A stretch of 17,199 nucleotides of DNA from a virus (Duplodnaviria; Heunggongvirae; Uroviricota; Caudoviricetes): the IMG/VR virus record IMGVR_UViG_2563366937_000009; one strand, 5' to 3'. A program made the position numbers and the translations under genes. The notes beneath the pieces were generated by a model. That model saw only the letters and a program-made list of their open reading frames with translations. It was not told the DNA's origin and did no database searches. Positions 349-16,047 of the stretch are shown here, piece after piece. Within the stretch, counting starts at the first letter, position 1. Each line of letters opens with the position of its first letter.

Positions 349-571
349 TTTTCATCTCCATATATCTTGCATCCTGTATAAGACCCGATGCGTGTAAAAC
401 CACGGATATACGCTAAGCAGTTGTCATTACTGCCACTCAATACATTCAACAAACAAATAAACAATCACCAAAAATATAAATTTTTAATATTAATGAACGT
501 CATAAATTCACAAAATAAATATATTGTTTGCGTTATGTTTCTTGTCAACTGGAGTATCATTTTACACGATG

Positions 572-587
572 CTGTATGTGCATACAG
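572..587. promoter_or_regulatory. LexA (SOS) operator, CTGT-N8-ACAG
   Basis: Sequence CTGTATGTGCATACAG, flanked to give tgCTGTATGTGCATACAGta. It matches the CTGT-N8-ACAG consensus and differs by one base within the 16-mer from the E. coli recA operator (CTGTATGAGCATACAG, quoted from memory). It lies in the divergent intergenic region between the Mor-like gene and the lysis cassette. Confidence 0.55.
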
Positions 588-885
588 TATTATTTTTACC
601 TGTAGTGTAAAAAGATCGTTTCCCTCACAGTCGCTGACTTTCTTAAACAAACTTTAAAAATCAAATGACTATGGACTATTCCTACGATTCACCGTCCTCT
701 TTTCCCTACATAATGACGCGCTTATTCTCCAGGACACCTTTTGCTCTTTTATTAATGGGTGGATTTATTAGCAAGCATGTTCATTTATAGAGGATCTATT
801 TTTTAAAGTTATTTATTAAAGCTTTTTTCATTCTTCACTGGAGGGATCTGGCGACACTAAACGCTCACTTATCAGGAGATATCGT

Positions 886-1173
886 ATGAAAAAAGTCACT
901 TTTCCCCGTCTTTCCGGCTGGCTGGTCGCTTCCGTCGCGCTGTTTGTCGCGATCGGCTGGACATCTTCCGCACAGATCCCGGTTGTCATTTATAAACTAA
1001 GTCTGGTTTCGCTCGCCGCTGTGCTGGGATACTGGCTCGATCGCAGTCTGTTTCCCTGGGCGCGGCCTGACTCATTTTGCCCCTGGGAAGAGGCGCGATG
1101 CTGCGCGGCGGCAATGATTCGTCGGGCTATCATCGTTGCAGCCGTCTGCCTTTCCGTCGCGTTAGGACTTTAG
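886..1173 (+). CDS. small membrane protein with three predicted hydrophobic segments; putative holin
   Basis: 95 aa with hydrophobic stretches LSGWLVASVALFVAIGW, VVIYKLSLVSLAAVLGYWL and AIIVAAVCLSVALGL. AGGAG lies 7 nt upstream of the ATG. Its stop is 2 nt before the endolysin start. The holin call rests on position and topology only. Confidence 0.45.
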   Translation: MKKVTFPRLSGWLVASVALFVAIGWTSSAQIPVVIYKLSLVSLAAVLGYWLDRSLFPWARPDSFCPWEEARCCAAAMIRRAIIVAAVCLSVALGL

Positions 1174-1175
1174 TG

Positions 1176-1781
1176 ATGCAGGTAAAATTTCTCGCGCTAA
1201 TTACTCTGTTCGCGTTCTTCCCGCTTAACGCATCTGAACCACCGCGAGCATCTCTGGCATGGCGAAACGAACTGATTCGAACTGCACGAGAAGTCTGGGG
1301 ACTGAACGCCCCGGTGGCAGACTTCGCCGGGCAGTTGCACCAGGAATCAGCCTGGCAGCCAATGGCGCGTTCCCCCGTCGGCGCACAGGGTATGGCGCAA
1401 TTTATGCCTGCCACAGCGACATGGATAAGCCAGTTGTATCCACAGCTACGTGAAAACAAGCCCTATAACCCAACCTGGGCGATTCGCGCATTGGTGCAAT
1501 ATGACCAGCATTTGTGGAAAAACATCTCGGCGAAAAATGGCTGCCAGCGTATGGCGTTTACCCTAAGCGCCTATAACGGTGGTCAGGGATGGGTTAATCG
1601 GGATAAAAAACTGGCCGCATCCAAAGGGTTAGATGCCACCATCTGGTTTGGTCATGTTGAGCACGTCAACGCCGGGCGTAGTGCCGCAAACTGGCGAGAA
1701 AATCGTCACTATCCGAAGATGATCCTCTATCAACATGCCGCCCGCTACTTACTCTGGGGGCAGGCAAGCTGTCTTCACTAA
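1176..1781 (+). CDS. lytic transglycosylase (SLT-domain) endolysin with N-terminal signal peptide or signal-anchor
   Basis: The track ORF 1077-1781 runs through the upstream gene, so the start is set at the ATG at 1176 (GTG at 1174 is an alternative). N-terminus MQVKFLALITLFAFFPLNA is signal-like. The LHQESAWQP...GAQGMAQFMP segment resembles the family-1 lytic transglycosylase catalytic Glu-Ser motif. Confidence 0.75.
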   Translation: MQVKFLALITLFAFFPLNASEPPRASLAWRNELIRTAREVWGLNAPVADFAGQLHQESAWQPMARSPVGAQGMAQFMPATATWISQLYPQLRENKPYNPTWAIRALVQYDQHLWKNISAKNGCQRMAFTLSAYNGGQGWVNRDKKLAASKGLDATIWFGHVEHVNAGRSAANWRENRHYPKMILYQHAARYLLWGQASCLH

Positions 1782-1793
1782 TCAGAGGGGCCG

Positions 1794-2108
1794 ATGAAAC
1801 TCAGTATCGATTTTTGGGAAGTGATCTCCCTTATGCTTTCCTTCGTTGGATTAATGTTTGCTGCCGGAAAATTGCTGTTAGCGCAAATTGAAAAAAGACT
1901 TAATGAGCGTTTTGAATCTCTGGAAAACGCGCGCCGGGAATCAGAAACAAGCTGGTCGAAACTGGAAAGAGAATTTCTCGAATTTCGTGCCGAGCTTCCG
2001 CTGCATTATGTCCGCAGAGAAGATTATCTTCGTGGCCAGGCAGTATTAGAAGCAAAGCTGGATGCCTTATATAGCAAAATAGAGCTATTACAACGTGGCA
2101 GCTATTAA
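1794..2108 (+). CDS. membrane-anchored coiled-coil protein; possible i-spanin-like lysis accessory protein
   Basis: 104 aa with an N-terminal hydrophobic segment (ISLMLSFVGLMFAAGKLLLA) followed by a charged, helical region. GAGGGG RBS. It sits immediately after the endolysin. No embedded lipoprotein (o-spanin) ORF was seen. Confidence 0.4.
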   Translation: MKLSIDFWEVISLMLSFVGLMFAAGKLLLAQIEKRLNERFESLENARRESETSWSKLEREFLEFRAELPLHYVRREDYLRGQAVLEAKLDALYSKIELLQRGSY

Positions 2109-2113
2109 ATACA

Positions 2114-2146
2114 TCCCCACCTTTACATAAGTGTGGGGATTTTTTA
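2114..2146 (+). terminator. intrinsic terminator after the lysis cassette
   Basis: 7-bp stem TCCCCAC (2114-2120) pairs with GTGGGGA (2133-2139) around a 12-nt loop, followed by TTTTTTA. Confidence 0.6.
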
Positions 2147-2254
2147 TAGCCATTCAATTTTTTCTCTAAATCACATTAAAAGATTCTTCACCTTCACTGC
2201 TTCAGAATACATTTCAACGATAACGAAGTGAGCAGTAATTAAGGAACACCCTAT

Positions 2255-2710
2255 ATGGAAATTTTATCTGTAATTAATTCTGTTGTGACCAGATTACGTG
2301 AACAGAATCCCGAAATGGACGTATTTATTTCATCGGTTGATGCCAATAAATATATTCCGCAGACGCAGCAAGTTACAGTGATTATTAATTATAGCGGTTC
2401 TCTATTTGCCATGCCTGAAAGCAGTGATGCCCTCGTGCAACAGCAAACGCTCCGTTTAACTGCCACCGTTATTGTTGGCAAAAATTGTGACGCGTTAAAC
2501 GCACTGGATCGCATACGCAGCGCACTGGGGGGGATCCAGCTTCCTGATTGCGAGCGTCTTCTTTGGCTTGAAACAGAAATCAATGCAGGCAAGAGCGGTG
2601 GTTTCTGCCGCTACATCCTGGAAATGGCGACCAGATCGCTGTTTATCGCAAAACGGGAAAGCACGGACCTTACCCTGCTTACTGAAGTTAATTACGAGGA
2701 AACTGAATGA
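2255..2710 (+). CDS. conserved tail-module protein directly upstream of the sheath gene (Mu gp37-like position); function unknown
   Basis: 151-aa ORF with an AAGGAA RBS. Its stop overlaps the next start (ATGA at 2707-2710). Assignment is by position in the Mu gene order, not by a recognised motif. Confidence 0.45.
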   Translation: MEILSVINSVVTRLREQNPEMDVFISSVDANKYIPQTQQVTVIINYSGSLFAMPESSDALVQQQTLRLTATVIVGKNCDALNALDRIRSALGGIQLPDCERLLWLETEINAGKSGGFCRYILEMATRSLFIAKRESTDLTLLTEVNYEETE

Positions 2711-2904
2711 AATACATCTACAACGGCCCGGCAAGCGGCGTCACCCTTGCCGACGGACAAGAAATCTTATTGTGGCCGAACAGTGAAATTGATCTGCCAG
2801 AAGAAAACGAGTGGGTTATGACCATGATTGCCCGCAATCACCTGACTCCTGTCATCACTCAGGAAGAACAAAATAACGGAGAGGAAATTGTACATGGCAG
2901 CTAA
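2707..2904 (+). CDS. small tail-module protein (Mu gp38-like position)
   Basis: 65-aa acidic ORF, translationally coupled to the upstream gene and overlapping the sheath start. Confidence 0.4.
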   Translation: MKYIYNGPASGVTLADGQEILLWPNSEIDLPEENEWVMTMIARNHLTPVITQEEQNNGEEIVHGS

Positions 2905-4318
2905 TTACCTGCACGGTGTAGAAACCATTGAAATTGAAACCGGTCCGCGCCCGGTTAAAGCGGTAAAATCCGCTGTAATCGCTTTAATCGGTAGTGCACC
3001 ATGCGGTCCGGTAAACAAACCAACATTGTGCCTTTCTGAAAGCGATGCCGCGCAGTTTGGCTCGACTCAGGCTAACTTTACTATCCCGCAGGCGCTGAAG
3101 GCGATTTATGACCACGGCGCCGGTACGGTGGTGGTGATTAACGTACTGGATCCGGCAAAACATGGCTCCAGCATCAGCAATGAGAGTATCACTTTTGATT
3201 CCAACAACCAGGCAAAACTGGCTCATCGTGCGGTGCGCAATGTCGTCCTGAAACCCTCTTCAACATCAGCCACTACGTATAGCAGCGCAGCGTTTCATGT
3301 TGATGAACAAACAGGAATAATCACTCGTGCAGAAACTGAGATCCCTGCCGGAGCGAAAGTTTGCGCCTATTACTCATGGGCCGATCCAACAAAAGTTACC
3401 GCAGCCGATATTATTGGCGCCGTTAATACCGCAGGCGATCGCACGGGGATGAAACTGCTACAGGATACCTATAACCTGTATGGTTTCTACGCCAAAATCC
3501 TGCTTGCTCCCGTTTTCTGTACGCAAAAATCGGTCACCACCGAACTGATTGCTCAGGCGGAAAAACTCGGTGCTATCGCCTACATTGACGCCCCAATCGG
3601 TACTACATTCCAGCAGGTACTGGCTGGTCGCGGCTCGAAAGGCGCAATCAACTTCAACACCAGTTCTGACCGTGCGCGTTTGTGCTATCCGCACGTCAAA
3701 GTTTATGACGGCTCAACCAACCAGGAAGTTCTCGAACCGCTATCTTCACGCGCTGCCGGACTGCGTGCCAAAGTAGACCTGGAGAAAGGTTTCTGGTGGA
3801 GCAACTCAAACCAGGAAATTCAGGGCATTATCGGTATCGAACGTTCACTTTCCGCAATGGTTGATGACCCGCAAAGTGAAGTGAATCAGCTCAACGAAAA
3901 CGGCATTACCACTGTTTTCAATAGTTACGGCTCTGGTCTGCGTTTATGGGGCAACCGCACTGCGGCATGGCCAACCGTGACCCATATGCGTAACTTTGAA
4001 AACGTTCGCCGCACGGGTGATGTGATTAACGAGTCGATCCGTTATTTCAGCCAGCAGTATATCGATATGCCGATTAATCAGGCACTAATTGATGCCCTGA
4101 CCGAGTCGGTAAATACCTGGGGCCGTAAGCTGATTGCCGACGGCGCACTGCTTGGCTTTGAGTGCTGGTACGATCCGGCGCGAAATTCACCGACCGAACT
4201 CAGTGCCGGGCATTTATTGCTGAGCTATAAATTCACCCCGCCACCGCCGCTGGAACGTCTGACGTTTGAAACTGAAATTACCTCTGAATATTTAGTCTCT
4301 CTGGAGAGCAATAGCTAA
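2894..4318 (+). CDS. contractile tail sheath protein (P2 FI / Mu L-like)
   Basis: About 474 aa. Start placed at the ATG at 2894, which has a GGAGAGG RBS (the track start at 2888 is an alternative). The C-terminal YGSGLRLWGNRTAAWP segment is the sheath-family G-x-R-x-WG-x-RT signature. A tube gene follows immediately. Confidence 0.88.
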   Translation: MAANYLHGVETIEIETGPRPVKAVKSAVIALIGSAPCGPVNKPTLCLSESDAAQFGSTQANFTIPQALKAIYDHGAGTVVVINVLDPAKHGSSISNESITFDSNNQAKLAHRAVRNVVLKPSSTSATTYSSAAFHVDEQTGIITRAETEIPAGAKVCAYYSWADPTKVTAADIIGAVNTAGDRTGMKLLQDTYNLYGFYAKILLAPVFCTQKSVTTELIAQAEKLGAIAYIDAPIGTTFQQVLAGRGSKGAINFNTSSDRARLCYPHVKVYDGSTNQEVLEPLSSRAAGLRAKVDLEKGFWWSNSNQEIQGIIGIERSLSAMVDDPQSEVNQLNENGITTVFNSYGSGLRLWGNRTAAWPTVTHMRNFENVRRTGDVINESIRYFSQQYIDMPINQALIDALTESVNTWGRKLIADGALLGFECWYDPARNSPTELSAGHLLLSYKFTPPPPLERLTFETEITSEYLVSLESNS

Positions 4319-4842
4319 TGGCTGGAAAAATTCAAATTAACCGTATTACCAATGCCAATATTTATCTCGATGGTAATAACCTTTTAGGTCGTGCAACCGA
4401 AATTAAATTACCGGATGTCAGTTTAATTATGCAGGAGCATAAAGCACTGGGCATGGTCGGCAAAATCGAACTCCCGGCAGGTTTCGATAAACTGGAAGGG
4501 GAAATTAAATGGAACTCCTTTTATCAAGACGTCATGCGTAAAACGGCAAACCCGTGGCAGGCGGTAGCATTACAGTGCCGCTCCAGTATTGATTGCTATA
4601 ACTCCCAGGGGAAAGCGAATCAATTAGCGTTAGTCACTCATTTGACTGTTATGTTTAAAAAGAATCCATTGGGAACATTTAAACAGAATGAAAACCCGGA
4701 ATTCAGCAGCGCCTTTGGTTGTACCTATATTAAACAGGTGGTCGATGGTGAAACACTACTGGAACTGGATTACCTGGCGAATATTTTCCGCGTTAACGGC
4801 GTGGATCAATTAAGTACCTATCGCAATAACATCGGTGGCTAA
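4318..4842 (+). CDS. tail tube protein (P2 FII / Mu M-like)
   Basis: 174 aa. Start overlaps the sheath stop (TAATG). Size and position are as expected for the tube gene downstream of the sheath. Confidence 0.8.
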   Translation: MAGKIQINRITNANIYLDGNNLLGRATEIKLPDVSLIMQEHKALGMVGKIELPAGFDKLEGEIKWNSFYQDVMRKTANPWQAVALQCRSSIDCYNSQGKANQLALVTHLTVMFKKNPLGTFKQNENPEFSSAFGCTYIKQVVDGETLLELDYLANIFRVNGVDQLSTYRNNIGG

Positions 4843-4847
4843 GTTAT

Positions 4848-4868
4848 TCGGGGCTACGGCCCCGATTT
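4848..4868 (+). other. GC-rich stem-loop just downstream of the tube gene
   Basis: TCGGGGC (4848-4854) pairs with GCCCCGA (4859-4865) around a TACG loop, followed by TTTCC. It may act as a partial terminator or mRNA stabiliser. Confidence 0.35.
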
Positions 4869-4892
4869 CCGCATGACCAATAAGGATACAAA

Positions 4893-5210
4893 ATGAAAGA
4901 ACATTATACCTTACAGTTCCCGTTTACTTCAGCGGCGGGAGACGTAATTAACACTCTGCAATTACGTCGCCTGAAAGTAAAAGATATGCGCAACGCGCGC
5001 CGGATCAGCGAAAAACCAGAAGAATGGGATGAACCGCTAATGGCTGCAATGACCGGACTGGTGCCAGAAGATTTAGCTGAAATGGATTTGCTGGATTACC
5101 AGGCATTGCAGAAACGATTTCAATCCATGCTTAGCGTGGCTACAGAATCCGCCACTGTTATGGCAAGCGATGGCGTTACTGGCGAGATGGTTTCGCTTTC
5201 CGCCCAGTGA
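4893..5210 (+). CDS. tail assembly chaperone (P2 gpE / Mu gp41-like)
   Basis: 105-aa acidic protein between the tube and tape-measure genes, the conserved chaperone position. An overlapping +1-frame extension is open to 5298. Confidence 0.65.
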   Translation: MKEHYTLQFPFTSAAGDVINTLQLRRLKVKDMRNARRISEKPEEWDEPLMAAMTGLVPEDLAEMDLLDYQALQKRFQSMLSVATESATVMASDGVTGEMVSLSAQ

Positions 5211-5399
5211 GATAGACGCCCTTACCGTCGATGACTTTAGCAACTGGCTGGATGAAGCCAACGCCCAAATAAAAATCGAATATGACTCGCAGACCTGATG
5301 TCTGCGAGTTTCCCAAGCCCGTCAGGTTTATTTCTTCCCTGCCCTTTTTTTTAGAAAAATAACCAGCGGGCCATTATCAATATTTAAAGAGAAACAATT

Positions 5400-7760
5400 T
5401 TGGCCAACGATATTATTACCCAGCTTCAGGCGCGTAATGAGACGTTGACGCAGGCAATAGCCCGTTACGGCTCACTCAACGCCAGAACATTGTTAACTCT
5501 CTCTACTCAGCAAGCGACAGTTATCAAACTAACGCAGCGACTTGCCGATTCCGCTCTCCGCCTGGAGGAAAATAGCCGCAGCCGCGCTAATCTGATGGAG
5601 AAAACCCAAACATTTGCCGGGCAATTTAGCAAAGTATTCAATGTTGAAGCCCCCGACTGGAAGTTGCCGTATGAGTTTCAGGACAATATGGTCAATATGG
5701 CGACCAAAGGTGGGATGAGTGATGCCACTCGCGAGACGCTCAGCCTTAATCTGCGCGACTGGAGTATGGATTTTAACCAGCAGCAGACCACGTTACAGTC
5801 CGCCGCTCTGACCTTAGTTGAAGGCAACATATCGTCCTTGCAGGATCTCAACCGCTATATGCCGGAGATCGCCAAAGCCGCCACCGCCACGCGCGACAGC
5901 GCCGAAACATGGGCGAAAGCCGCGCTCGCGACTCATGATCGACTGAATATTGCCCCGGAAAATTTCCACGCTGCGCAAAACATGATGTACAGCGTTACCA
6001 AAAGCGGTGGGCCTGCCATTGCCGAACAAACGCAGTGGATAGAGAAATTTGCAGGTAAAACCGGCGCTCAGGGTCTGGAAGGTATGGCTGAACTGACCGC
6101 CACCATGCAGATCGCCATGAAAAACGGTGCCAGCGCCAGTGCAGCGGCGGAGAATTTCGACCATTTTCTACAAACCACATTTTCGAAAAAAACCGATAAC
6201 TGGTTCGCCAGCCAGGGCGTCGATCTGCAAGGTTCTCTGCTGGAGCATCAGCAAAACGGTATGGGTGTTAGCGAAGCTATGACTCATATCGTGCAAATGC
6301 AGCTTGAGAAGATGAATCCGGCGATCCTCGATACCTTCAAACGCACCATGCAGATTGAAGATTTATCTGCCCGCAGCAATGCGCTGCAATCGATGGTGAC
6401 GCAGTTTAATCTGGGCGAAATGTTCGGCGATGCGCAAACGGTGGAATTCCTGGCCCCTATGCTGGCGAACATGGAAGAGTATCGCCAGCTAAAAGCCTCT
6501 GCCATGCAAGCCACCAGCAAGAATCTGATTGATGCCGACTTTTCTGCGCAAATGGCTTCGCCCATTGAACAGACTAAAGCGTTACAACTGGCGTTAAATG
6601 ATTTATGGCTCAGCATTGGCTTGCAGCTTATGCCGGCGATTGGCGAGCTGGCGCAAAGCCTTGCGCCGGTTATTCGCCAGTTCAGCGCCTGGCTACGCGA
6701 ACACCCGGCACTAGTGCAAAACATTGCGAAAATCGTCGGGGCGATTTGGCTGTTTAACGGTGCGCTGAATGTTTTAAAGCTGGGCGCGAACTTCATCGCC
6801 TCGCCGTTTATTCGTCTGGTCGATATCTTCCTGAAAGTCAGGGCAAGTCTGGCGCTCGGAGGCGCAGCGAGTAAGGTGCTATCGGCGGTTAAGTCATTGG
6901 GTGGCGGCGCAAAATGGCTAACGCAACTGCTTGGTCGTGGCCTGAGCGGAGCATTGAAACTGGTTGGTCGGACCGTTCTCTCACTAGGCCGGGTGCTACT
7001 GATGAATCCCATTGGTCTGGTCATCACTGCGATTGCGGGCGCGGCTTATCTGATTTATCGCAACTGGGAACCTATCACCAGGTTCTTTTCCGCCATCTGG
7101 AAACGTATTACCACGGCCTTTGACGGTGGCATTGCAGGTATTAGCCGGTTGATTCTCGACTGGTCGCCACTGGGGCTGTTCTACAGCGCCTTTTCCGGTG
7201 TGATGAATTGGTTTGGTGTTGAGATGCCTGCGAGTTTTAGCGAGTTCGGCAGCAATATACTGGGTAGCCTGGCCGACGGCATAATGAATGCTTTCCCCGC
7301 TCTGAAAGGCATTATTGATCAGGTCAAAAACGCCATGCCAGACTGGCTAAAAGCCACAATGGGGATCGGCACAGAAGCATCGGCTGCGACTGTTACAGGC
7401 ACGACTAATACCGCATCAGTCTCCCCCGCGACCGTTGTTCCAGGCGTTGCCGGTGCGCTTTTAACGCCGCCTGTGGGCAAACAACTCGCGCCATCCAGCA
7501 AAACGACAACGCCGTCATCGGCGCCAGTGGCAAAACCCGCGTCGGCCTCTTTACCAAGTAAATCCGTAACCAAACCGGCGACGCTACCCTCCCGTTCCCC
7601 AGGAAAAGTCCAGGTGAATTTTTCGCCACAAATTACCGTGCAGGGTAACGGACAAAACACCACTAAAGACATTCAGAACGTGTTGACGATGAGTAAACGC
7701 GAACTGGAAAGAATGATTAACGACGTAATGGCGCAGCAACAGCGCCGGGGGTATGCCTGA
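5400..7760 (+). CDS. tail tape measure protein
   Basis: 786 aa. Apparent TTG start at 5400, with an in-frame stop at 5385-5387 and AAGAGA upstream. Long helical N-terminal region, hydrophobic Gly/Ala/Leu-rich central region and a Pro/Ser/Thr/Ala/Lys-rich C-terminal linker. Sits at the canonical position after the chaperone. Confidence 0.85.
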   Translation: MANDIITQLQARNETLTQAIARYGSLNARTLLTLSTQQATVIKLTQRLADSALRLEENSRSRANLMEKTQTFAGQFSKVFNVEAPDWKLPYEFQDNMVNMATKGGMSDATRETLSLNLRDWSMDFNQQQTTLQSAALTLVEGNISSLQDLNRYMPEIAKAATATRDSAETWAKAALATHDRLNIAPENFHAAQNMMYSVTKSGGPAIAEQTQWIEKFAGKTGAQGLEGMAELTATMQIAMKNGASASAAAENFDHFLQTTFSKKTDNWFASQGVDLQGSLLEHQQNGMGVSEAMTHIVQMQLEKMNPAILDTFKRTMQIEDLSARSNALQSMVTQFNLGEMFGDAQTVEFLAPMLANMEEYRQLKASAMQATSKNLIDADFSAQMASPIEQTKALQLALNDLWLSIGLQLMPAIGELAQSLAPVIRQFSAWLREHPALVQNIAKIVGAIWLFNGALNVLKLGANFIASPFIRLVDIFLKVRASLALGGAASKVLSAVKSLGGGAKWLTQLLGRGLSGALKLVGRTVLSLGRVLLMNPIGLVITAIAGAAYLIYRNWEPITRFFSAIWKRITTAFDGGIAGISRLILDWSPLGLFYSAFSGVMNWFGVEMPASFSEFGSNILGSLADGIMNAFPALKGIIDQVKNAMPDWLKATMGIGTEASAATVTGTTNTASVSPATVVPGVAGALLTPPVGKQLAPSSKTTTPSSAPVAKPASASLPSKSVTKPATLPSRSPGKVQVNFSPQITVQGNGQNTTKDIQNVLTMSKRELERMINDVMAQQQRRGYA

Positions 7761-8713
7761 TGTATGCCGTTTTAGGAGAGATTGAATTTAAGGTTGTCAC
7801 ATTCTGGGACGGCTTTAAAAGCACAATGGGCGTGGATTACGCCACACATGCCCGTATTGAAGGCAAACCTGGCGTGCAGTTTATTGGCGATAAGCTGGAC
7901 ATGCTGGCGCTGGAATTTTCCCTGCACAGCCAGTTTTGCCAACCCACAACAGAGCTGAATCGACTGCGTGAAGCCATGCTTGCCCACAAAGCAATGGCGC
8001 TGGTGTTTGGCAACGGTGATTATCGCGGCTGGTTTGTAATTACAGAGTTAACCGCCACTCACCAGCACACCGATCCCTGGGGCAATGTCATTGCCCAAAG
8101 CGGAACAATGTCGCTCCAGGAGTATACCGGCGATCCGAAAAACCCACTCCTGCCCCCGGCGATTACCACCCAGGAGCCTAATATTGACGAAAAGGCGAGC
8201 GATTTTCCGGACAAGGTGGAGTCCTGGTTGGATCAGATATTGAACGCCATTGAAGAAGGTATGCGCAAAGCCAAAGAGATGATCGATGAACTGGCGCAAT
8301 CCATTGAAGATATTAAAAAAACAGTGGCAAAGGTTAAAGCACTGATTAAAGAGGCCAAAGCGTTAAAAGAAAAGTGTGAAAAGATAATTACGTCGTTGAA
8401 AAAGACTATCGATGCCATCGAAACCCTGTTTAAACAGCCGATGGATCTGCAAACGCTGGCAGGATTACCAAAAGCGTTGTCGGCGCAGATTAAAGCATTG
8501 CTGGGTAGCCTGCCGGGTATCCGCGACTGCGCCAAAGACGCCGGGACACTGGTTGACCATGCACAAGAACTGTTTGGCAGCATCACCAGCGCCATCGCCG
8601 AAGCAACTTTCGATAAAGCCACAACGTTGGTTGAGCAGGCGCGTACAACGGTACAGCAAACCACTCCCGCAGTGACTCAGCTCGCTGCCGCGACCATTAC
8701 GAGGAGCTGGTAA
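7760..8713 (+). CDS. gpU-like tail protein (Mu DNA-circularisation protein N-terminal-domain type) with a C-terminal coiled-coil extension
   Basis: 317 aa. Start overlaps the tape-measure stop (TGATG). The N-terminal ~150 aa has the P2 gpU / Mu N pattern by eye. Residues ~165-230 are Lys/Glu-rich heptad-like (KAKEMIDELAQSIEDIKKTVAKVKALIKEAKALKEKCEKII). Confidence 0.55.
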   Translation: MYAVLGEIEFKVVTFWDGFKSTMGVDYATHARIEGKPGVQFIGDKLDMLALEFSLHSQFCQPTTELNRLREAMLAHKAMALVFGNGDYRGWFVITELTATHQHTDPWGNVIAQSGTMSLQEYTGDPKNPLLPPAITTQEPNIDEKASDFPDKVESWLDQILNAIEEGMRKAKEMIDELAQSIEDIKKTVAKVKALIKEAKALKEKCEKIITSLKKTIDAIETLFKQPMDLQTLAGLPKALSAQIKALLGSLPGIRDCAKDAGTLVDHAQELFGSITSAIAEATFDKATTLVEQARTTVQQTTPAVTQLAAATITRSW

Positions 8714-8922
8714 TGCGATACCTTGAACATATCACCACCGACGGCGAACGCTGGGATAACCTGGCATGGCATTACTACGGTGATGCACTGGCTTATGAAC
8801 GCATTATCGCCGCCAATCCACATGTCGCCATTTATCCGGTACTGCCTGCCGGTATTCAGCTCATTATTCCGGTCATTACCGTCAACAAGACCGTATCGGA
8901 GATCCCACCATGGCTGAGATAA
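8713..8922 (+). CDS. tail protein X (P2 gpX-like, LysM-like)
   Basis: 69 aa. TAATG overlap with the upstream gene. The conserved position between the gpU-like and gpD-like genes matches the phiCTX/R-pyocin order U-X-D. Confidence 0.65.
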   Translation: MRYLEHITTDGERWDNLAWHYYGDALAYERIIAANPHVAIYPVLPAGIQLIIPVITVNKTVSEIPPWLR

Positions 8923-9950
8923 GCGTAACTGGCGGCGTCTTTGCCACGCTCGCGCCCATTTTTACCCTCTGGTATGGGCATAAAGATATCACTTATGACA
9001 TCACGCCTTATGTCACCAGCATCAGTTACCAGGACAGTATTAAAAACGAGTCGGATACCATCGCGATTACACTGGATGACACCGATGGACGCTGGATAAA
9101 AGAGTGGTATCCCGGCAAAGGCGATACGCTGGCGCTGCACATAGGTTATCAGGGGGAAAAACTGCTCGATTGTGGTCAATATATCATTGATAAAATTGAC
9201 ATTTCAGCACCACCTTCCACGGTAAATATTGATGGCATCGCCACTTCCGTCAATCAGGCGCTGCGCACCCGTAACAGTCAGGGCTTTGAAGAGACAACGC
9301 TTTCAGCCATCGCCAGCCGTATCGCGCAAACTCACGGCCTGACGCTGGTGGGCAAAATCGAGCCGCTGACGATTGACCGGGTGACACAGTACGGCGAAAC
9401 CGATGTCGGATTTCTCAAGCGCCTGGCCAGCGAATATGGCTATGCGGTAAAGGTGACCACCAAAGAACTGATTTTTTCGCATTTACCCACGCTGCGCTGC
9501 CTGGCGCCGGTGAAAAAGATCGACCGCAAAGACGTTTCGCATTTCACCTTCAAAGATACCATTAACCGCATCTACAAAAACGCCACCGTACAGCATCAAA
9601 ATAGTAAGAAAAAAGAACTGGTTATCTACACTCACGACAGCCAGCAAAAGCCGTCTGCCCGTGGAGTCGGCACCAGTGCCGACACGCTGAAACTGAACAG
9701 TCGGGCGCCGGACGTTGGCGCGGCGCAGGCAAAGGCCAACGCCGCGCTCGACAGCCACAACGAATATCAACAAACCGGAACGCTCAGGATGATGGGCTGC
9801 CCGGAACTGACGGCAGGCAATAAAATCGAGCTAACCGATTTTGGTGTACTTTCCGGTCAGTGGCTGATTGATAAATCGACTCACAGTTTTGTGCGCAGCG
9901 GCTATATCACTGAAATCGACATTTCACGCGGGCCAGCAACCAGCCAGTAA
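8910..9950 (+). CDS. late control gene D-type tail/baseplate hub protein (P2 gpD / Mu P-like)
   Basis: 346 aa. Overlaps the X-like gene by 13 nt. Size and position fit the gpD family. Confidence 0.8.
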   Translation: MAEISVTGGVFATLAPIFTLWYGHKDITYDITPYVTSISYQDSIKNESDTIAITLDDTDGRWIKEWYPGKGDTLALHIGYQGEKLLDCGQYIIDKIDISAPPSTVNIDGIATSVNQALRTRNSQGFEETTLSAIASRIAQTHGLTLVGKIEPLTIDRVTQYGETDVGFLKRLASEYGYAVKVTTKELIFSHLPTLRCLAPVKKIDRKDVSHFTFKDTINRIYKNATVQHQNSKKKELVIYTHDSQQKPSARGVGTSADTLKLNSRAPDVGAAQAKANAALDSHNEYQQTGTLRMMGCPELTAGNKIELTDFGVLSGQWLIDKSTHSFVRSGYITEIDISRGPATSQ

Positions 9951-9959
9951 GGAGGCAAT

Positions 9960-10661
9960 ATGAAAGGAGTAACCCGGCAAACGGGGATTATCAGCGATAT
10001 TGACGAAACCAGCGTTCGGGTGCGGGTCACGCTACCAGAGTGTGACAATCTGAAGAGTAACTGGCTTGCGGTGCTGCAGCGCAATTCTCAGGACAATAAG
10101 GATTACTGGCTACCGGATATGGGCGAACAGGTGGAAGTTCTGCTGGATGATAACGGTGAAGATGGCGTGGTGCTGGGCGCAGTATATTCAACGGTAGACA
10201 CTGCGCCAGTAGCATCGCGCGACAAACGCTATGTCCAGTTTTCTGATGGCGCAGCGTTTGAATATGACCGCAGCACCCACCAGCTTACGATTAATGGTGG
10301 CATCGAAAAAATCGTGATTGAGGTTATTGACCGTACCAGCCTGACATCGCCCAACGTTGAGGTTAAAGCCCAACACGTCACCGTGACTTCCGACACTGTT
10401 GATGTGAAAGCCACCGATGTCAGCATTGAAGCCAGTAAGGTCGATGTTAAAGCGGCAGCAGTGACGGTAGATGCGCCCATGAGCACCTTTACCGGCAACG
10501 TCACGGTGATGAAAAAACTCACCTGGCTTGGTGGCATGGCAGGAAGTGGAGGCATCGGCAACGCCGCCACGATAACCGGCAATGTCAACGTGATTGGTAA
10601 CGTTCAGGCCAGCGGCACATTGCAGGACAGCGGTGGCAACTCCAACCACCATTCACACTGA
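9960..10661 (+). CDS. baseplate spike protein (P2 gpV / Mu gp45-like)
   Basis: 233 aa with a strong AGGAGG RBS. N-terminal domain (GIISDIDETSVRVRVTLPECDNLKSNWLAVLQ) followed by a repetitive beta-strand-like C-terminus (VTVTSDTVDVKATDVSIEASKVDVKAAAVTVDA) typical of spike needles. Confidence 0.8.
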   Translation: MKGVTRQTGIISDIDETSVRVRVTLPECDNLKSNWLAVLQRNSQDNKDYWLPDMGEQVEVLLDDNGEDGVVLGAVYSTVDTAPVASRDKRYVQFSDGAAFEYDRSTHQLTINGGIEKIVIEVIDRTSLTSPNVEVKAQHVTVTSDTVDVKATDVSIEASKVDVKAAAVTVDAPMSTFTGNVTVMKKLTWLGGMAGSGGIGNAATITGNVNVIGNVQASGTLQDSGGNSNHHSH

Positions 10662-10666
10662 CGTTT

Positions 10667-10696
10667 AACCCGCCTGATGGCGGGTTTTCTCTTTTT
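10667..10696 (+). terminator. intrinsic terminator-like hairpin inside the tail operon, between the V-like and W-like genes
   Basis: AACCCGCC (10667-10674) pairs with GGCGGGTT (10679-10686) around a TGAT loop, followed by TTCTCTTTTT. Confidence 0.5.
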
Positions 10697-10759
10697 AATC
10701 AATCAGTTTTCTAAATCGCTTTAATATCCCCGCCGCCTGTTCAGGGCGAAAATACCCTC

Positions 10760-11119
10760 ATGAACACGAAAACACGCCCCTCTACGCTGCACTGGCAACC
10801 CGCCTTGCAGCGGCCTGAAGAATACGTCTGCGGACTGGATGATATTCACCAGGCAATACACATCATTCTGCGCACACCGCGCGGCAGTGATCCCCACAGA
10901 CCGCTGTTTGGCAGCAACTTGTGGCACTACATCGATTATCCCATCGAGCGGGCGATCCCGCATGTGGTAAGGGAGTCGGTAGAGGCCATCCGCCAGTGGG
11001 AACCGCGCTGCCGGTTGCTGAAGGTGACACCGGTAATCGACGGGGAACATCTGACGTTACGTGTGCAATGGCGCGCCGCTGACGGCGTAATCAACTCAAC
11101 GGAGGTGTTATGGCGATAG
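10760..11119 (+). CDS. baseplate wedge protein, GPW/gp25 family
   Basis: 119 aa. The pattern (HQAIHIILRTPRGSDPHRPLFGSNLWHYIDYP...EAIRQWEPRCRLLKV) fits the gp25/GPW family. Confidence 0.85.
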   Translation: MNTKTRPSTLHWQPALQRPEEYVCGLDDIHQAIHIILRTPRGSDPHRPLFGSNLWHYIDYPIERAIPHVVRESVEAIRQWEPRCRLLKVTPVIDGEHLTLRVQWRAADGVINSTEVLWR

Positions 11120-12225
11120 CCGAACCCGATTTTATTGACCGCGATCCTGCGCAAATTACCAGCGAGATGATTGCGCAGTACGAAGATGCCAGCGGCAAAA
11201 AGCTCTACCCGGCACAGGCCGAGCGGTTGCTGATTGACCTTTTTGCCTATCGTGAAAACCTTGTACGCATCGCCATTCAGGAAGTGGCGAAACAGAATCT
11301 GGTCGCGTATTCCCGCGCGCCAATGCTGGATTATTTAGGTGAGCTGGTGGGCGTTCACCGCTTACCTGCACAACCGGCAAAAACCACGTTGCAGTTTTCG
11401 GTAGCCAGTAAGAATCGAAATAACATTCTAATTCCACAAGGAACACGTGCCAGCGCCTCTGACAGCGTGATGTTTGCTACCGATGAAGATGTTCTGATTC
11501 CGGCGGGAAGTTTGCATATAGCCGTTCCCGCCACCAGTCTGGCAACAGGCGAAGCGGGCAATGGCTGGCAGCCTGCACAGATTAGCGCCCTTGTTGACAG
11601 GATTGGTTATTACGATATCAGCGTGACCAACCTGACGGCCTCAACCGGCGGCTGCGGTGAAGAGAGCGATGACGCACTACGCCAGCGGATCCAACTGGCG
11701 CCGGAAAGTTTCAGCAATGCGGGCAGCTATGGTGCCTACCGCTTTCATACGCTTTCCGTAAGCCAGTCGATTATTGACGTCGCGGTACTGGGGCCGGACG
11801 AAGGATTGCCAGAAGGCTGCGTGGAGATCTACCCGCTAACGCTGAATGGTCTGCCGGGCGTGGAACTGCTCGCGCAAATTGAACTGGAGGTTAGCAAGGA
11901 GAAAAAACGTCCGCTGACCGACAAAGTAAGTGCGAAATGCGCCGTTAGGGTGCCGTATGAAATCCGTGCGCAGCTCACACTGTTTACCACTGCCGATCAG
12001 GAGACAACGCTGGCTGCGGCGCGTAAAGCGATTAGCCTCTGGACGCAACAGCGGCAGAAACATCTGGGACAGGACATTGTGCCAAACCAGATAATCAAAG
12101 TGTTACAAGTCGATGGTGTCTATGACGTTGCGCTGAATATGCCTACAAAACGTATTTTGCAGGCGCATGAGTGGGCGGAATGCACCGCGATAGACGTCAC
12201 GATTGCCGGAGTCAGCGATGGATAA
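11110..12225 (+). CDS. baseplate J-like protein (P2 gpJ / Mu gp47-like)
   Basis: 371 aa. Overlaps the W-like gene by 10 nt. Size and position fit the Baseplate_J family. Confidence 0.85.
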   Translation: MAIAEPDFIDRDPAQITSEMIAQYEDASGKKLYPAQAERLLIDLFAYRENLVRIAIQEVAKQNLVAYSRAPMLDYLGELVGVHRLPAQPAKTTLQFSVASKNRNNILIPQGTRASASDSVMFATDEDVLIPAGSLHIAVPATSLATGEAGNGWQPAQISALVDRIGYYDISVTNLTASTGGCGEESDDALRQRIQLAPESFSNAGSYGAYRFHTLSVSQSIIDVAVLGPDEGLPEGCVEIYPLTLNGLPGVELLAQIELEVSKEKKRPLTDKVSAKCAVRVPYEIRAQLTLFTTADQETTLAAARKAISLWTQQRQKHLGQDIVPNQIIKVLQVDGVYDVALNMPTKRILQAHEWAECTAIDVTIAGVSDG

Positions 12226-12934
12226 ATTGCTGCCGCCACCGCCGCTTGCCAGCGATGAGCGTTTTTCAACTCTGGCAAATATCGCCACCGAGCGTTTTGC
12301 CCAACTCGATCTGACAGCGTTGATGGTTTATCTGGTAGACCTGGTTGATGCTTCGGCATTACCTGCCCTTGCAGAACAATTTCACGTTCAGGGGCTGGAA
12401 GGTTGGTTATTTACCACTGATGAACGGGAGAAGCGCGAGTTAATTAAGCAAGCCATTGAGCTGCATAAATATAAAGGAACGATTTGGGCGGTACGGCGGG
12501 TGCTGGAAATACTTTCGCTACCAGGAACTATTTCAGAATGGTTTGAATATGGGGGGAAGGCTTATTTTTTTAAGGTTGATATTACACTAGAGGAAAAAGG
12601 ATTAAATGAAGATGAATTTAATGCACTTATCGCATTAATTCACGAATATAAAAATGTTCGTTCAAAACTTGAAAGCATTACCATCTGGCTTATTAACCAA
12701 AGTCAAATGCCAGTTATTGGCAGCGCAATCCAGGGTGGGGAGGTTATTACTGTATTACCCCCTATTGCGGAGAGTATTTGGCAGTCATCGACACTATTTT
12801 TAGCGACAGGTTACTGTGTTGAGGAATACATAAATCTCTTTCCGTATCAACCTGATCGCATTACACAATCCCAACCGATTCATGTCGGCACAGGATACTG
12901 GAGTACCGAAATTATGTCTGTATACCCGGAGTAA
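12203..12934 (+). CDS. tail protein I (P2 gpI / Mu gp48-like)
   Basis: 243 aa. Overlaps the J-like gene by 23 nt. The N-terminal LLPPPPLA motif region and position fit gpI. The C-terminal half is markedly AT-richer than the upstream genes. Confidence 0.7.
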   Translation: MPESAMDKLLPPPPLASDERFSTLANIATERFAQLDLTALMVYLVDLVDASALPALAEQFHVQGLEGWLFTTDEREKRELIKQAIELHKYKGTIWAVRRVLEILSLPGTISEWFEYGGKAYFFKVDITLEEKGLNEDEFNALIALIHEYKNVRSKLESITIWLINQSQMPVIGSAIQGGEVITVLPPIAESIWQSSTLFLATGYCVEEYINLFPYQPDRITQSQPIHVGTGYWSTEIMSVYPE

Positions 12935-12936
12935 GT

Positions 12937-14433
12937 ATGGCAAGTGAATTTTTTACAATATTAACCACCGCAGGCAAATCAAAAATTGCCTCTGCGCTGG
13001 CGGAGCAAAAACAGATCCGCCTACAAACTATGGTGGTCGGCGATGGCAATGGTCATTATGTCGAGCCGACAGAAAGTCAAACCAAAGTTGTGCATGAAGT
13101 CTGGCGTGGGCAACTAAATACCTTAAAAATTGCGCCTGATAATCCAGCCTGGGTTATCGCAGAGACGATTATTCCTGAACAAGTAGGTGGCTGGTACGTC
13201 CGCGAGGTTGGGCTACTGGATGCTGACGGCACACTAGTTGCTATTGGCAAATTTCCGGAAACCTATAAACCGCTATTACCTGCAGGTGCCAGTAAGCAAA
13301 TTGTTATTCGCGCAGTTATGGAAGTGACCAATGCTGACGCGGTGACGCTTTTGATCGACCCTTCAGTCGTTATAGCAACCAGAGAATATGTCGATGAAAC
13401 GCTGAAAGAACATCAACAATCACGGAATCATCCTGATGCGACGCTGACGCAGAAAGGTTTTACGCTGCTGAGTAATGCGACCAATAGCGATGATGAAACC
13501 AAAGCGGCCACGCCAAAAGCGGTAAAAGCGGCATATGACCTGGCAAATAGTAAAGCCGCCACTAGTCATACTCATGCCTGGAATCAGATTAATGGTATCC
13601 CTGACGGTACGCTGACGCAGAAAGGGATCGTTAAACTTAACAACACGACAAATAGCCCCAGTACGGCGGAAGCTGCAACGCCAAGTGCGGTTAAGGCGGT
13701 GTATGACCTGGCAAATAGTAAAGCCGCCACTAGTCATACTCATGCCTGGAATCAGATTACTGGTATCCCTGACGGTACGCTGACGCAGAAAGGGATCGTT
13801 AAACTTAACAACACGACAAATAGCGCCAGTACGACGGAAGCTGCAACGCCAAGTGCGGTTAAGGCGGTGTATGACCTTGCTAATGGCAAGGCTTCGGCAA
13901 GTCATACGCACGCATGGGAGCAGATTACCAACATTCCCGACGCAACTCTTGGTAAGAAAGGAATTGTTCAGCTAAGCAGTATCGTCCCTAGTACCAGTAC
14001 AACAGAAGCAGCAACGCCATACTCAGTTAAGGTTGCCTATGACCTTGCGAACACTAAAGCTCCGGCAAGCCATGCTCATCCATGGAATCAAATTACTGGT
14101 ATCCCGGACGGTACGCTGACGCAAAAAGGGATTGTGAAGCTTAATAACACAACAAACAGCACCAGTACGACAGAGGCAGCGACACCCAGTGCGGTGAAGG
14201 CAGCAATGGACAAAGCAAATACAGCGTTGAATAACACCACTGCATCTATATCAGATGTCAGACTAGGTGCTAAATTTGATCAGGTTATGGCAAAAGGGGG
14301 GCGCTATGAATTCTCTGGTAATGTTCTGACTGGGTTGAGAATTATCGGAGAAGTAGATGGAGATGATCTCGCTATATTTCGCCCACTTCAGATAAAGGTT
14401 AGAAATTCTTGGTATACGGTAGGGCAACTTTAA
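12937..14433 (+). CDS. tail fibre protein with conserved N-terminal baseplate-attachment domain, a tandem-repeat shaft and an AT-rich C-terminal tip
   Basis: 498 aa. The N-terminal ~150 aa resemble the P2 gpH / Mu S N-terminus. Five ~56-aa repeats follow (T-L-T-Q-K-G-I-V-K-L-N-N-T-T-N-S...A-A-T-P-S-A-V-K-A-V-Y-D-L-A-N-S-K-A...S-H-T-H-A-W-N-Q-I-T-G-I-P-D-G). The C-terminus has a divergent composition. Confidence 0.85.
   Translation: MASEFFTILTTAGKSKIASALAEQKQIRLQTMVVGDGNGHYVEPTESQTKVVHEVWRGQLNTLKIAPDNPAWVIAETIIPEQVGGWYVREVGLLDADGTLVAIGKFPETYKPLLPAGASKQIVIRAVMEVTNADAVTLLIDPSVVIATREYVDETLKEHQQSRNHPDATLTQKGFTLLSNATNSDDETKAATPKAVKAAYDLANSKAATSHTHAWNQINGIPDGTLTQKGIVKLNNTTNSPSTAEAATPSAVKAVYDLANSKAATSHTHAWNQITGIPDGTLTQKGIVKLNNTTNSASTTEAATPSAVKAVYDLANGKASASHTHAWEQITNIPDATLGKKGIVQLSSIVPSTSTTEAATPYSVKVAYDLANTKAPASHAHPWNQITGIPDGTLTQKGIVKLNNTTNSTSTTEAATPSAVKAAMDKANTALNNTTASISDVRLGAKFDQVMAKGGRYEFSGNVLTGLRIIGEVDGDDLAIFRPLQIKVRNSWYTVGQL
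13441..14280 (+). repeat. in-frame tandem repeat of 168 bp, about five copies, inside the tail fibre gene
   Basis: Copies start at 13441, 13609, 13777, 13945 and 14113. Copies 2 and 3 are nearly identical at the DNA level; copies 4 and 5 are more diverged. Confidence 0.85.
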
Positions 14434-15086
14434 TGGAATATAAAAATTTTACACTCTATAAACCAACAGAAAGTATTGGTGGTATTTTTTATCTAAAATC
14501 TGCTGACGATGTTGATTGGTACGAGGCACAAAAAAACTTTTCTACCGAAACGTTAAAAATTGCTTATGATAGCACAGGTAGAATTTGCATTGCGGATACT
14601 GATGCCTCAGCGATTTGGCCAATAAATTTATCTATCAGTGAGATCTCATCTGAGAATGTTCCTGATGATTTTTCAACAAATGGGAAATGGCTCTGGAATG
14701 GCGAAAGTATAATCAGCTCTGTAACAATCGTAACCGCTAAAAAAAATAAAGTAGAGGATATCAAAAATCAACGCGACACCATCACAACCGATTACATCAT
14801 CATCAACAACCATCACTTCCACAGTGATACAAATAGCCGTATCCAACAGCTTTCACTCACTAAAATGGGAGCGGAGAAAAAAATCCTTCCAGGTTTAATG
14901 TGGAAAACTAAAAATAACGGTCTGATTGAGTTAACCAACGAAATCGCTGCCCAGTTTGAATCGGTAACAATAGATCACGATATGCGCCTGTTCGCCAACG
15001 CCCAGCGTCATATCGCGGCGGTGGAAGCTCTGGACGATATTCAGGCAGTGCTCGACTACGATTACTCCACAGGCTGGCAACCATGA
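14433..15086 (+). CDS. tail fibre assembly protein (chaperone; P2 gpG / Mu U-like)
   Basis: Start placed at the ATG overlapping the fibre stop (TAATG at 14431-14435); the track ORF starts upstream at 14409. AT-rich variable N-terminal part and a conserved C-terminal tail (RLFANAQRHIAAVEALDDIQAVLDYDYSTGWQP). Confidence 0.75.
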   Translation: MEYKNFTLYKPTESIGGIFYLKSADDVDWYEAQKNFSTETLKIAYDSTGRICIADTDASAIWPINLSISEISSENVPDDFSTNGKWLWNGESIISSVTIVTAKKNKVEDIKNQRDTITTDYIIINNHHFHSDTNSRIQQLSLTKMGAEKKILPGLMWKTKNNGLIELTNEIAAQFESVTIDHDMRLFANAQRHIAAVEALDDIQAVLDYDYSTGWQP

Positions 15087-15538
15087 GTAAAACCACTGTC
15101 TGGCTCGCTTGTTATAAGGGCCGAACAGAGCACCGTGGTATTGCCCGACTGGCTGACTGGCTTACCCGTAAAATCACACGCGGTAGTTATTCCCACTGTG
15201 AATTAGCCGTTAAGCATGGTGAAAAGAGTTACCTTTGTTACTCTGCATCACTGCGCGATCGCGGTGTACGCGGAAAGATAATGCCGTTACCTGCGGATAA
15301 GTGGGATCTATTGCCGCTCCAGGCCAGCCTTCAGGATGTGGAAACTTTTTTCCGTAAACATGATGGCAAACGCTATGACTGGCGCGGAGCCTTAGGAATT
15401 ATCACCGGCAATAAAGAACAGTGCGATCGCCTGTTTTGCAGTGAATTTTGTGCTGAATTTCTGCAATTAAAAGACAGCTGGCGATACTCACCCAATCACC
15501 TGTATGCCTTAGTAAGTAGCTGGCAATCCCATCCGTAA
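15083..15538 (+). CDS. hypothetical 151-aa protein, translationally coupled to the fibre assembly gene; possible permuted papain-fold (NlpC/P60-superfamily, YaeF/YiiX/LRAT-like) enzyme
   Basis: ATGA stop/start overlap with the upstream gene. A His-containing motif (GSYSHCELAV) lies N-terminal to a Cys-Ser-Glu motif (LFCSEFCAEFL), the order seen in permuted papain-fold enzymes. No signal peptide. The family assignment is from pattern memory only. Confidence 0.35.
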   Translation: MSKTTVWLACYKGRTEHRGIARLADWLTRKITRGSYSHCELAVKHGEKSYLCYSASLRDRGVRGKIMPLPADKWDLLPLQASLQDVETFFRKHDGKRYDWRGALGIITGNKEQCDRLFCSEFCAEFLQLKDSWRYSPNHLYALVSSWQSHP

Positions 15539-15543
15539 ATCAC

Positions 15544-15570
15544 ACCGGGCACAATGCCCGGTTCCTTATA
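15544..15570 (+). terminator. putative terminator at the end of the tail operon
   Basis: ACCGGGC (15544-15550) pairs with GCCCGGT (15556-15562) around an ACAAT loop, followed by TCCTTATAT. The T-run is weak. Confidence 0.4.
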
Positions 15571-16047
15571 TACTCTAAATAGCTTATATGGACACCTCCC
15601 CGATGCAAGCACGGTCAGACAGAGAAAATGGTCTCTGCGCCTTACTCCGAAAGGGCTGACCGAAAATGGAGAGCTATTCCGCTTGGCTATTTAGAATTAG
15701 GCTATAACATATTTATAAAAAATATTATTCCAAACAAAACATTCATGTGAAGAATAAAAATAAATTTTTAAAAATAAATATATTGCGTTATAAATCACTT
15801 CAAATATAGTTTGTCCTTTTGGTACCCTCATAGACGATGCGAGGAAACAGCGTGTTTACTGCCTCACTCCTCTGGAAAAGTAAGGTTATCACTAATAAAA
15901 ATGAGTCAGATAACACGTTGCCGCTGGCACGCCACAAAGATAGAGGCTTAAGTAGGATAACATTCACATACTATGCATATACACTGATTCCTCATTTGCT
16001 TATAAAAATTCAATAAAGCAAGGTAACAATAGAAAGGATAGTACGTC

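Follow-up and report, generated by a model that had tools for sequence, protein, structure and literature searches.

A 20-mer with the form and strength of a host LexA operator lies between a Mor/C-family activator gene and the lysis cassette of a contractile-tail cluster in which no repressor gene was found. We put the probability at roughly two in three that this operator is the damage-sensing switch of a repressor-less, tailocin-like cluster, with host LexA acting through Mor on three putative late promoters, P1–P3. The stretch of DNA that was analysed, 17,199 nt at its full length, is referred to as the window. Judging by its genes, the window is a head-less P2/Mu-type contractile-tail cluster of the R-type tailocin-like kind from Escherichia. 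Pfam searches found the full contractile-tail set together with a lysis cassette, the gene set by which R-type tailocins are recognised. No head, replication, integration or repressor genes were found in the Pfam and ORF survey of the window. An ORF for a RecA-cleavable (S24/HTH) repressor was found neither in the window nor next to the island in E. coli and Salmonella; an unlinked repressor elsewhere in the genome is possible.

The two genes that flank the operator had been called Mor-like and holin-like in the initial annotation, which was made from the letters alone, and the Pfam searches bore this out. The mor product matched PF08765 with E = 7e-38 (129 bits; cut-off 24.9), and the holin match is given in the table. 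The Mor protein was 99% identical to an E. coli protein and 88% identical to Salmonella STM4219, and the holin was 100% identical to a protein labelled Escherichia. In the window, mor stands alone and divergent from the holin gene, not in a gemA–mor operon. The gemA–mor contexts of true Mu-like elements were seen solely for Mor homologues of 44–50% identity. Of 5426 complete E. coli genomes, 197 (~3.6%) have a 93%-identical island, placed between lysC and yjbD. Bordered by these two genes, the E. coli island carries just two unrelated cargo genes. The Salmonella counterpart at the same site is STM4198–STM4219, which is interrupted by the gtrABC operon. The features of the window are collected in the table.

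Features of the 17,199-nt window and the basis on which each was assigned
Feature	Position	Strand	Basis
Mor/C-family activator gene (mor), 115 aa	1–348	-	Pfam PF08765
P_R, predicted sigma-70-like promoter: TTTACA (561–566), N16, TACAGT (583–588)	561–588	+	Promoter scan, conservation
LexA (SOS) operator, putative	570–589, core 572–587	none	PWM, heterology index, conservation
P_L, predicted mirror-image sigma-70-like promoter toward mor: TTTACA (611..606), N16, TACTGT (589..584)	584–611	-	Promoter scan, score 7.2
Conserved block CTTAAACAAACTTTAAAAATCA, Plys-type activator-site-like	642–663	+	Kept in 5/7 first-round loci
P1, putative late promoter of lysis cassette: TTTTTTAAAGTTATTTATTAAAG (799–821), 31 nt, GACACT (853–858), no -35	799–858	+	Conservation
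Lysis cassette (holin, SLT transglycosylase, 104-aa ORF)	886–2108	+	Pfam, E. coli annotation
Holin	886–1173	+	Pfam Holin_2-3, E = 1e-27
SLT transglycosylase	1176–1781	+	Pfam SLT
104-aa ORF of lysis cassette	1794–2108	+	E. coli annotation
Putative terminator of lysis cassette: hairpin TCCCCAC/GTGGGGA, then T6	~2114–2146	+	Read from sequence
P2, putative late promoter of gp37: TTTTTTCTCTAAATCACATTAAAAG ... GAATAC/TACATT	2158–2213	+	Conservation
Tail operon 1: Gp37, 65-aa ORF, sheath, tube, assembly chaperone, tape measure, gpU, gpX, gpD, gpV	2255–10661	+	Pfam
Intrinsic terminator of tail operon 1: 8-bp stem, 6 G-C pairs, T-run after	10667–10686	+	Terminator scan, strong
P3, putative late promoter of gpW: TTTTCTAAATCGCTTTAATAT ... 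GAAAATAC	10707–10755	+	P2 profile match
Tail operon 2: gpW, gpJ, gpI, tail fibre, fibre-assembly proteins	10760–15538	+	Pfam, E. coli annotation

The 16-mer CTGTATGTGCATACAG, on the + strand at 572–587, is the sole CTGT-N8-ACAG match in the window, and it has one mismatch to the published recA operator CTGTATGAGCATACAG. Both the exact fit and the single mismatch had been noted in the initial annotation and were confirmed. The bare pattern is weak evidence by itself: at least one match occurred in 26 of 200 shuffled windows (13%). Scoring with a LexA position weight matrix (PWM), which had been proposed as a check, was performed with the 18 E. coli LexA boxes published in PMC3009722. The 20-mer TGCTGTATGTGCATACAGTA (570–589) scored 22.1 bits, the runner-up position in the window scored 10.7 bits, and the recA operator scored 20.1 bits when it was left out of the matrix. 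The 18 known sites spanned 6.3–27.0 bits in leave-one-out scoring, a range that includes the window box. None of 300 first-order Markov random windows reached 22.1 bits (maxima: mean 9.4, s.d. 2.6, largest 19.2). The heterology index, derived from the same 18-site table and not from the published Lewis table, was 5.15 for the window box, 5.24 for recA, and 0.27–8.5 for the 18 proven operators.

The box also has the LexA form, a CTGT-N8-ACAG palindrome inside the 20-mer TACTGTATATATATACAGTA. Its centre, GTGC, is less A/T-rich than the consensus and comparable to the GAGC of recA. The distance is 224 nt to the ATG of mor (348) and 299 nt to the ATG of the holin gene (886), in agreement with the earlier estimates of about 225 and 300 bp. 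These distances exceed those of most SOS genes.

The mor–holin intergenic region was aligned among seven first-round loci (the window, E. coli, Salmonella, Dryocola, Phytobacter, and two Superficieibacter). Mean identity was 61%, with many indels, and only two blocks were kept in 7/7 loci: CAYTTTACAY with the LexA box 2–3 nt on, and P1. Further loci were obtained from IMG/VR scans. Among the holin-anchored divergent mor–holin loci, 22 of 25 carried exactly one site of 20–28 bits, at a fixed position. In 22 distinct orthologous 110-mers, CTGT and ACAG were 100% invariant, the four central positions were 60–80% conserved, and the flanks were ~45–60% conserved. The centres seen included GTGC, GCAC, ACAC, ACGT, ACAT, GCAT, and AAAT. 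Invariant arms, a free centre and diverged flanks together form the pattern expected from selection on LexA contacts. The box was kept in Escherichia, Salmonella, Phytobacter, Dryocola, and Superficieibacter, in surroundings that are ~50% identical and contain indels. Every lineage also matched the flanking TA...TA of the LexA consensus, with TACTGTATATATATACAGTT as the Salmonella form. A scan of 610 kb of related DNA gave 51 matches of at least 19 bits and only 3 of 15–19 bits. In E. coli and Salmonella, up to 42 kb of chromosome flanking the island contained no comparable LexA site.

From these comparisons, the 16-mer is very probably a real host LexA binding site. The initial annotation had cautioned that a 16-mer of this type could arise by chance and had named location as the main support. 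The strength of the site together with its clean phylogenetic footprint excludes a chance origin, and it is conservation that supplies the main support. A chance match or a dead relic of an ancestral phage would be compatible with the frequency of the bare pattern in shuffled windows, with the distance of the box from both start codons, and with three related loci that manage without it. We consider this explanation very improbable, as no random window equalled the PWM score and the contact positions stayed invariant across five genera while the DNA around them diverged.

The palindrome was also considered as an element unrelated to LexA. Some other dimeric regulator, Mor or an unlinked LexA-like repressor, might use it as its operator, or it might act as a hairpin in RNA or DNA, for example a weak terminator. 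As + strand RNA, it folds into a 10-bp hairpin (-9.7 kcal/mol, z = -3.1) next to a U-rich tract, and fixed arms with a variable centre are also expected for a stem and its loop. However, RNA read toward mor would fold only weakly here (-4.6 kcal/mol, z = -0.5), and the palindrome lies upstream of the predicted rightward transcription start site (TSS) at ~595, so the rightward transcript would not contain it. The arms showed zero compensatory changes, only invariance, and the match to the LexA consensus in every lineage extends to TA...TA outside the palindrome core. The putative activator sites of P1–P3 have a quite different, A/T-rich motif. A role unrelated to LexA is thus improbable.

We then compared loci with other arrangements. 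No LexA site was found beside mor of true Mu-like prophages, where mor follows gemA. Related holins on prophage contigs of 32–80 kb had no mor neighbour and no LexA site. Carotovoricin-type clusters without mor had no LexA site of at least 10 bits in 8.3 kb. Because the loci without the mor–holin arrangement were also without the box, the box and mor appear from these sequences to travel together.

Two sister lineages depart from the common layout. Lineage D (L053, L055, and L057; IMG/VR contigs) has a holin and a mor of 88–89% identity and no box (best score below 3.4 bits). There the box and the TTTACA block have been replaced jointly, the P1 motif is altered, and a + strand TATAAT stands at the former place of the box in two of the three members. 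Lineage C (L025–L027 / L048, L051, L052) carries a 20–22 bit box, TGCTGTATAAATATACAGAT, at ~245–264 of the intergenic region. It has no TTTACA -35 block, its right arm ACAGAT spoils the rightward -10, and its flank is homologous to the right flank of the box in the window. The wiring is therefore not uniform, as lineage C has the box without the rightward promoter and lineage D has mor without the box.

Each of the three transcription units of the cluster is preceded by one conserved late-promoter-like element. P1, P2, and P3 share an A/T-rich upstream element and the lack of a -35. P1 was kept in all A/B loci, and P2 was kept across eight species and also in Pectobacterium and Samsonia. A profile search with P2 picked up P3 (E = 3e-4 to 3e-2). 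Elements of the P1/P2 type also precede the holin and gp37 genes of Pectobacterium/Samsonia clusters and the holin gene of Mu-like prophages. P1–P3 are probably targets of the Mor-family protein, much as the late promoters of Mu depend on C. The putative terminator behind the lysis cassette has a 12-nt loop, which is beyond the limits of the terminator scan, and hence it was not called automatically.

A second activator-site-like element was noticed between the box and P1. The block at 642–663, CTTAAAC-N3-CTTTAAAAATCA, corresponds to the promoter before the holin gene in carotovoricin-type clusters and in Mu-like phages. The 11-mer TTTTTAAAGTT has exactly two copies in the 17 kb, at 650–660 (-) and 800–810 (+). 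They lie 139 nt apart in opposite orientations, both upstream of the holin gene, and the copy in the 642–663 block is inverted relative to that in P1. Two activator-type sites before the lysis operon might point to looping or to tandem promoters. We also considered the block as a leftward 'Pm' autoactivated by Mor. This was rejected, as the profile matched just an ~11-nt element (E ~4–5), and comparison with Pectobacterium and Mu-like loci showed a + strand Plys-type site.

At the other end of the series, no Shine-Dalgarno sequence could be recognised before gpW (ATG at 10760), and the -10 predicted for P3 (GAAAAT/AAATAC, 10748–10755) ends ~5 nt upstream of this ATG. Read from these positions, the gpW mRNA may be leaderless or nearly so.

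The promoter-like elements at the box itself were analyzed with promoter scans and the alignments. P_R was the sole sigma-70-like match in 300–950 in the initial scan. Its -10 falls within the right arm of the box, and it is directed toward the lysis cassette. Its position was kept in 8/8 first-round loci, and in 22 distinct A/B sequences its TTTACA was invariant and its spacing fixed. P_L has a predicted TSS at ~577, and its -10 lies inside the same box arm as that of P_R. It is created by an inverted repeat (556–567 / 605–616) that flanks the box, and it is present only in the window / E. coli lineage. In the window, the box consequently overlaps the -10 of predicted promoters on both strands. 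This geometry resembles that of the symmetric bidirectional promoters that Warman et al. reportedly described in 2021. The other lineages, without P_L, have a weak leftward alternative, CTGTAT-N17-TAAAAT, in which the conserved block serves as the -10. Overall, candidate mor promoters lay 22–98 nt from the box and differed between lineages.

Salmonella (L002 20600–20690) and Phytobacter (L004 3680–3770) have a hairpin, CUCACG/CGUGAG followed by U5, directly after the box. By its sequence, this hairpin could terminate the rightward LexA-controlled transcript as a short RNA. A conserved short LexA-controlled sRNA, ended by a terminator to the right of the box, was rejected, as the window and E. 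coli were unstructured there (z = +1.3). A conserved ORF between the box and the holin gene was also rejected: the ATG of a 44-codon frame at 666 is ATA in E. coli, and the region is rich in indels.

The initial annotation had proposed direct LexA control of either the activator gene or the lysis/tail transcript. Direct control by host LexA is supported by the strength of the site, its footprint, and the missing locus repressor; the sequence by itself fits either transcript as the target. Several observations count against the cascade through Mor, among them the non-uniform wiring of lineages C and D and the distance of the box from both start codons. The promoter that is conserved in position is directed away from mor, and good leftward candidates overlapping the box are restricted to the window / E. 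coli lineage. LexA may instead control the rightward promoter alone, giving an SOS-induced leader that reads on into the region of the late promoter and into the lysis cassette or, in Salmonella and Phytobacter, a short RNA that ends at a terminator. In this case, mor would have its own LexA-free promoter, located in the 220 nt that separate the box from the ATG of mor. The lineage-variable placement of the mor promoter candidates off the box fits such an arrangement, as do the joint loss of the box and the TTTACA block in lineage D, with its + strand TATAAT, and the lack of any predicted terminator between 595 and 886 in the window.

Several findings make control of the rightward promoter alone unlikely. 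The tail operons lie behind terminators and need late promoters, so SOS induction of particles would still require a response of the activator. Lineage C keeps the box without either of the rightward promoter elements. The box goes with mor and not with the holin gene, as the carotovoricin-type clusters have the holin and the late promoters and neither mor nor the box. We favour mor as the essential target because the tail operons need activator-type promoters, and because mor is the sole regulator of the island and the box its sole LexA site.

In the favoured cascade, a LexA dimer on 570–589 would close a promoter hub that lies between mor and the divergent lysis cassette. In the window, RNA polymerase would thereby be kept from starting in either direction. 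DNA damage would lead to RecA-stimulated self-cleavage of LexA, and the hub would be freed. The Mor/C-family activator would then be produced and would act on P1 for lysis, on P2 for the genes from sheath to gpV, and on P3 for those from gpW to fibre. Transcription from the rightward promoter would also run into the lysis cassette. We infer that particles would be produced from these three units. Host LexA would thereby do what PrtR, RdgA or a cI-type repressor does for the characterised tailocins.

A more elaborate version of this scheme is possible, and we hold it only tentatively. A single LexA operator on a symmetric bidirectional promoter would gate both the activator and the lysis leader, giving an SOS feed-forward. 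A domesticated tail of the Mu/P2 type would have discarded its own repressor and directly joined the core SOS regulon of Escherichia, Salmonella, and their relatives. As part of the same tentative reading, the sister lineages would record a stepwise rewiring: the box with the rightward promoter only, the box without either element, no box, and carotovoricin clusters without mor and with unlinked RdgA/RdgB.

Published expression data from Salmonella were examined for the island. In the accessible part of PMC8072944 Dataset S1 (RNA-seq of S. Typhimurium 14028 with nalidixic acid), STM14_5073 was up-regulated 4.08-fold. STM14_5073 is a 348-bp CDS that lies 21.4 kb from yjbD in the fitting orientation, and on the basis of its size, orientation, and distance it is the probable Salmonella orthologue of mor. 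None of STM14_5042–5072, and no lysis or tail gene of the island, was among the differentially expressed genes listed in that part of the dataset. An induced mor orthologue, with the holin gene absent from the induced genes listed there, also argues against control of the rightward promoter alone. Support for SOS control from this induction is modest, because nalidixic acid up-regulated 1091 genes in all, and the data include no lexA(Ind-) control for STM14_5073.

Salmonella-type regions carry a box of 24–29 bits. In SARB27 it lies 226 nt upstream of the start codon, within the 400-bp limit used in PMC8072944. Table 1 of that paper, which covers SOS/LexA-box genes, contains no gene of the island, and STM14_5073 is absent from it. 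The Salmonella LexA site thus seems to have been overlooked before, because STM14_5073 appears in Dataset S1 and yet the island is missing from Table 1. In the STM4218–STM4219 intergenic region, the supplementary SNP table of PMC6333337 lists a C-to-T difference, at 4/74 position 4458827, that separates the invasive ST313 strain D23580 from the ST19 strain 4/74.

Characterised tailocins have a private RecA-cleavable repressor of the PrtR, cI or RdgA type. These are PrtR with PrtN for the pyocins of P. aeruginosa, PrtR1 in P. protegens, a cI-type repressor for dickeyocin, and RdgA for carotovoricin (Ctv). In the R-/F-pyocin (PrtR/PrtN) and PrtR1 systems, as proposed for the window, damage relieves a repressor, and the tail and lysis genes are then expressed through an activator or by direct derepression. 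In pyocins, a LexA-like repressor specific to the locus is encoded next to the cluster and the activator is PrtN, whereas the window has a putative operator with host-LexA specificity and an activator of the Mor/C family. The contrast with PrtR/PrtN drawn in the initial annotation therefore held, as no locus-specific repressor gene was found in the window or beside the E. coli island.

The Ctv cluster is homologous to the window. It has the order holin–SLT–...–Gp37–65 aa–sheath and the same type of late promoter before holin and gp37. Unlike the window, Ctv-type clusters have a type I secretion operon upstream of the holin gene and no adjacent mor. The regulators of Ctv are encoded away from the cluster; one of them, the dedicated repressor RdgA, is essential in Pectobacterium. 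In work of Liu, Chatterjee and Chatterjee from 1994, RdgB is said to be a Mor-like activator that is kept off by the RecA-processed repressor RdgA. Yamada 2006 is reported to relate Ctv to a Salmonella prophage. A 2026 paper states that Ctv is 'regulated via LexA', with a 1992 rdg genetics paper as the sole citation. In the searchable literature, outside which most subscription journals lie, we found no earlier description of LexA control of the island or of a Mor-type activator there.

Colicins and core SOS genes typically have operators for host LexA itself, and colicin promoters have paired overlapping LexA boxes. Like the colicin operons and recA, sulA, and umuDC, the window has a putative LexA operator of recA-like strength over core promoter elements, which are predicted in the window, and a lysis function downstream. 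Unlike colicins, it has one box at ~220–300 nt from the start codons. The colicin analogy made in the initial annotation is loose, with a single box ~300 nt from the lysis genes in place of a pair. Most plausibly, the box acts via an intermediate activator and not directly on the structural genes.

Phage Mu (Mor, then C, then Plys, PI, PP, and Pmom) shares with the window a Mor/C-family protein and -35-less promoters with an upstream A/T-rich site before lysis and tail genes. A TTAAC-N4-TTTAAAAT element is common to the window and the regions upstream of Mu-like prophage holins. In Mu-like prophages, mor follows gemA in an early operon under the phage repressor, whereas in the window it is a single gene divergent from the lysis cassette and has the LexA box. 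The locus is, as proposed here, like a colicin or SOS gene in its sensing step and like Mu or carotovoricin in its execution step.

Tailocin release kills the producer, and the trigger decides which cells fire and when. In this island, an operator for host LexA seems to have taken the place of a private repressor. If so, tailocin release would share the threshold and heterogeneity of sulA, umuDC, and colicins. SOS induction of a tailocin is in itself what specialists would expect; the finding touches two model organisms, as the island occurs in ~3.6% of complete E. coli genomes and in Salmonella corresponds to the long-unexplained STM4198–4219 'phage remnant' with its gtr O-antigen modification operon. 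A defined operator would provide a handle on whether these islands are active weapons and whether SOS-inducing antibiotics trigger them. The four natural architectures would form a ready series in which the incorporation of a domesticated phage element into a host regulon could be studied.

Some further features of the island were observed. In Salmonella, the gtrABC operon for O-antigen glucosylation (L002 31055–33890) is inserted exactly between gpV and gpW. The window has the tail operon 1 terminator and P3 at this point, and the insertion divides the tail cluster where two operons meet. In GCA_018141985.1 (L009), a 108-aa Mor-like ORF of 57% identity lies near pgi, with no tail genes in its 3-kb flanks and no LexA site; by its sequence, it looks like a remnant of the island. 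At the distal end of the window (15540–17199), the fibre-assembly genes are followed by an A/T-rich spacer of ~500 nt and then by a gene for a GT4 family glycosyltransferase (16048–17199), which runs off the window. The distal end of the E. coli A10 island has a nucleotidyltransferase gene and a slipin gene instead, indicating that the distal cargo of the island is variable.
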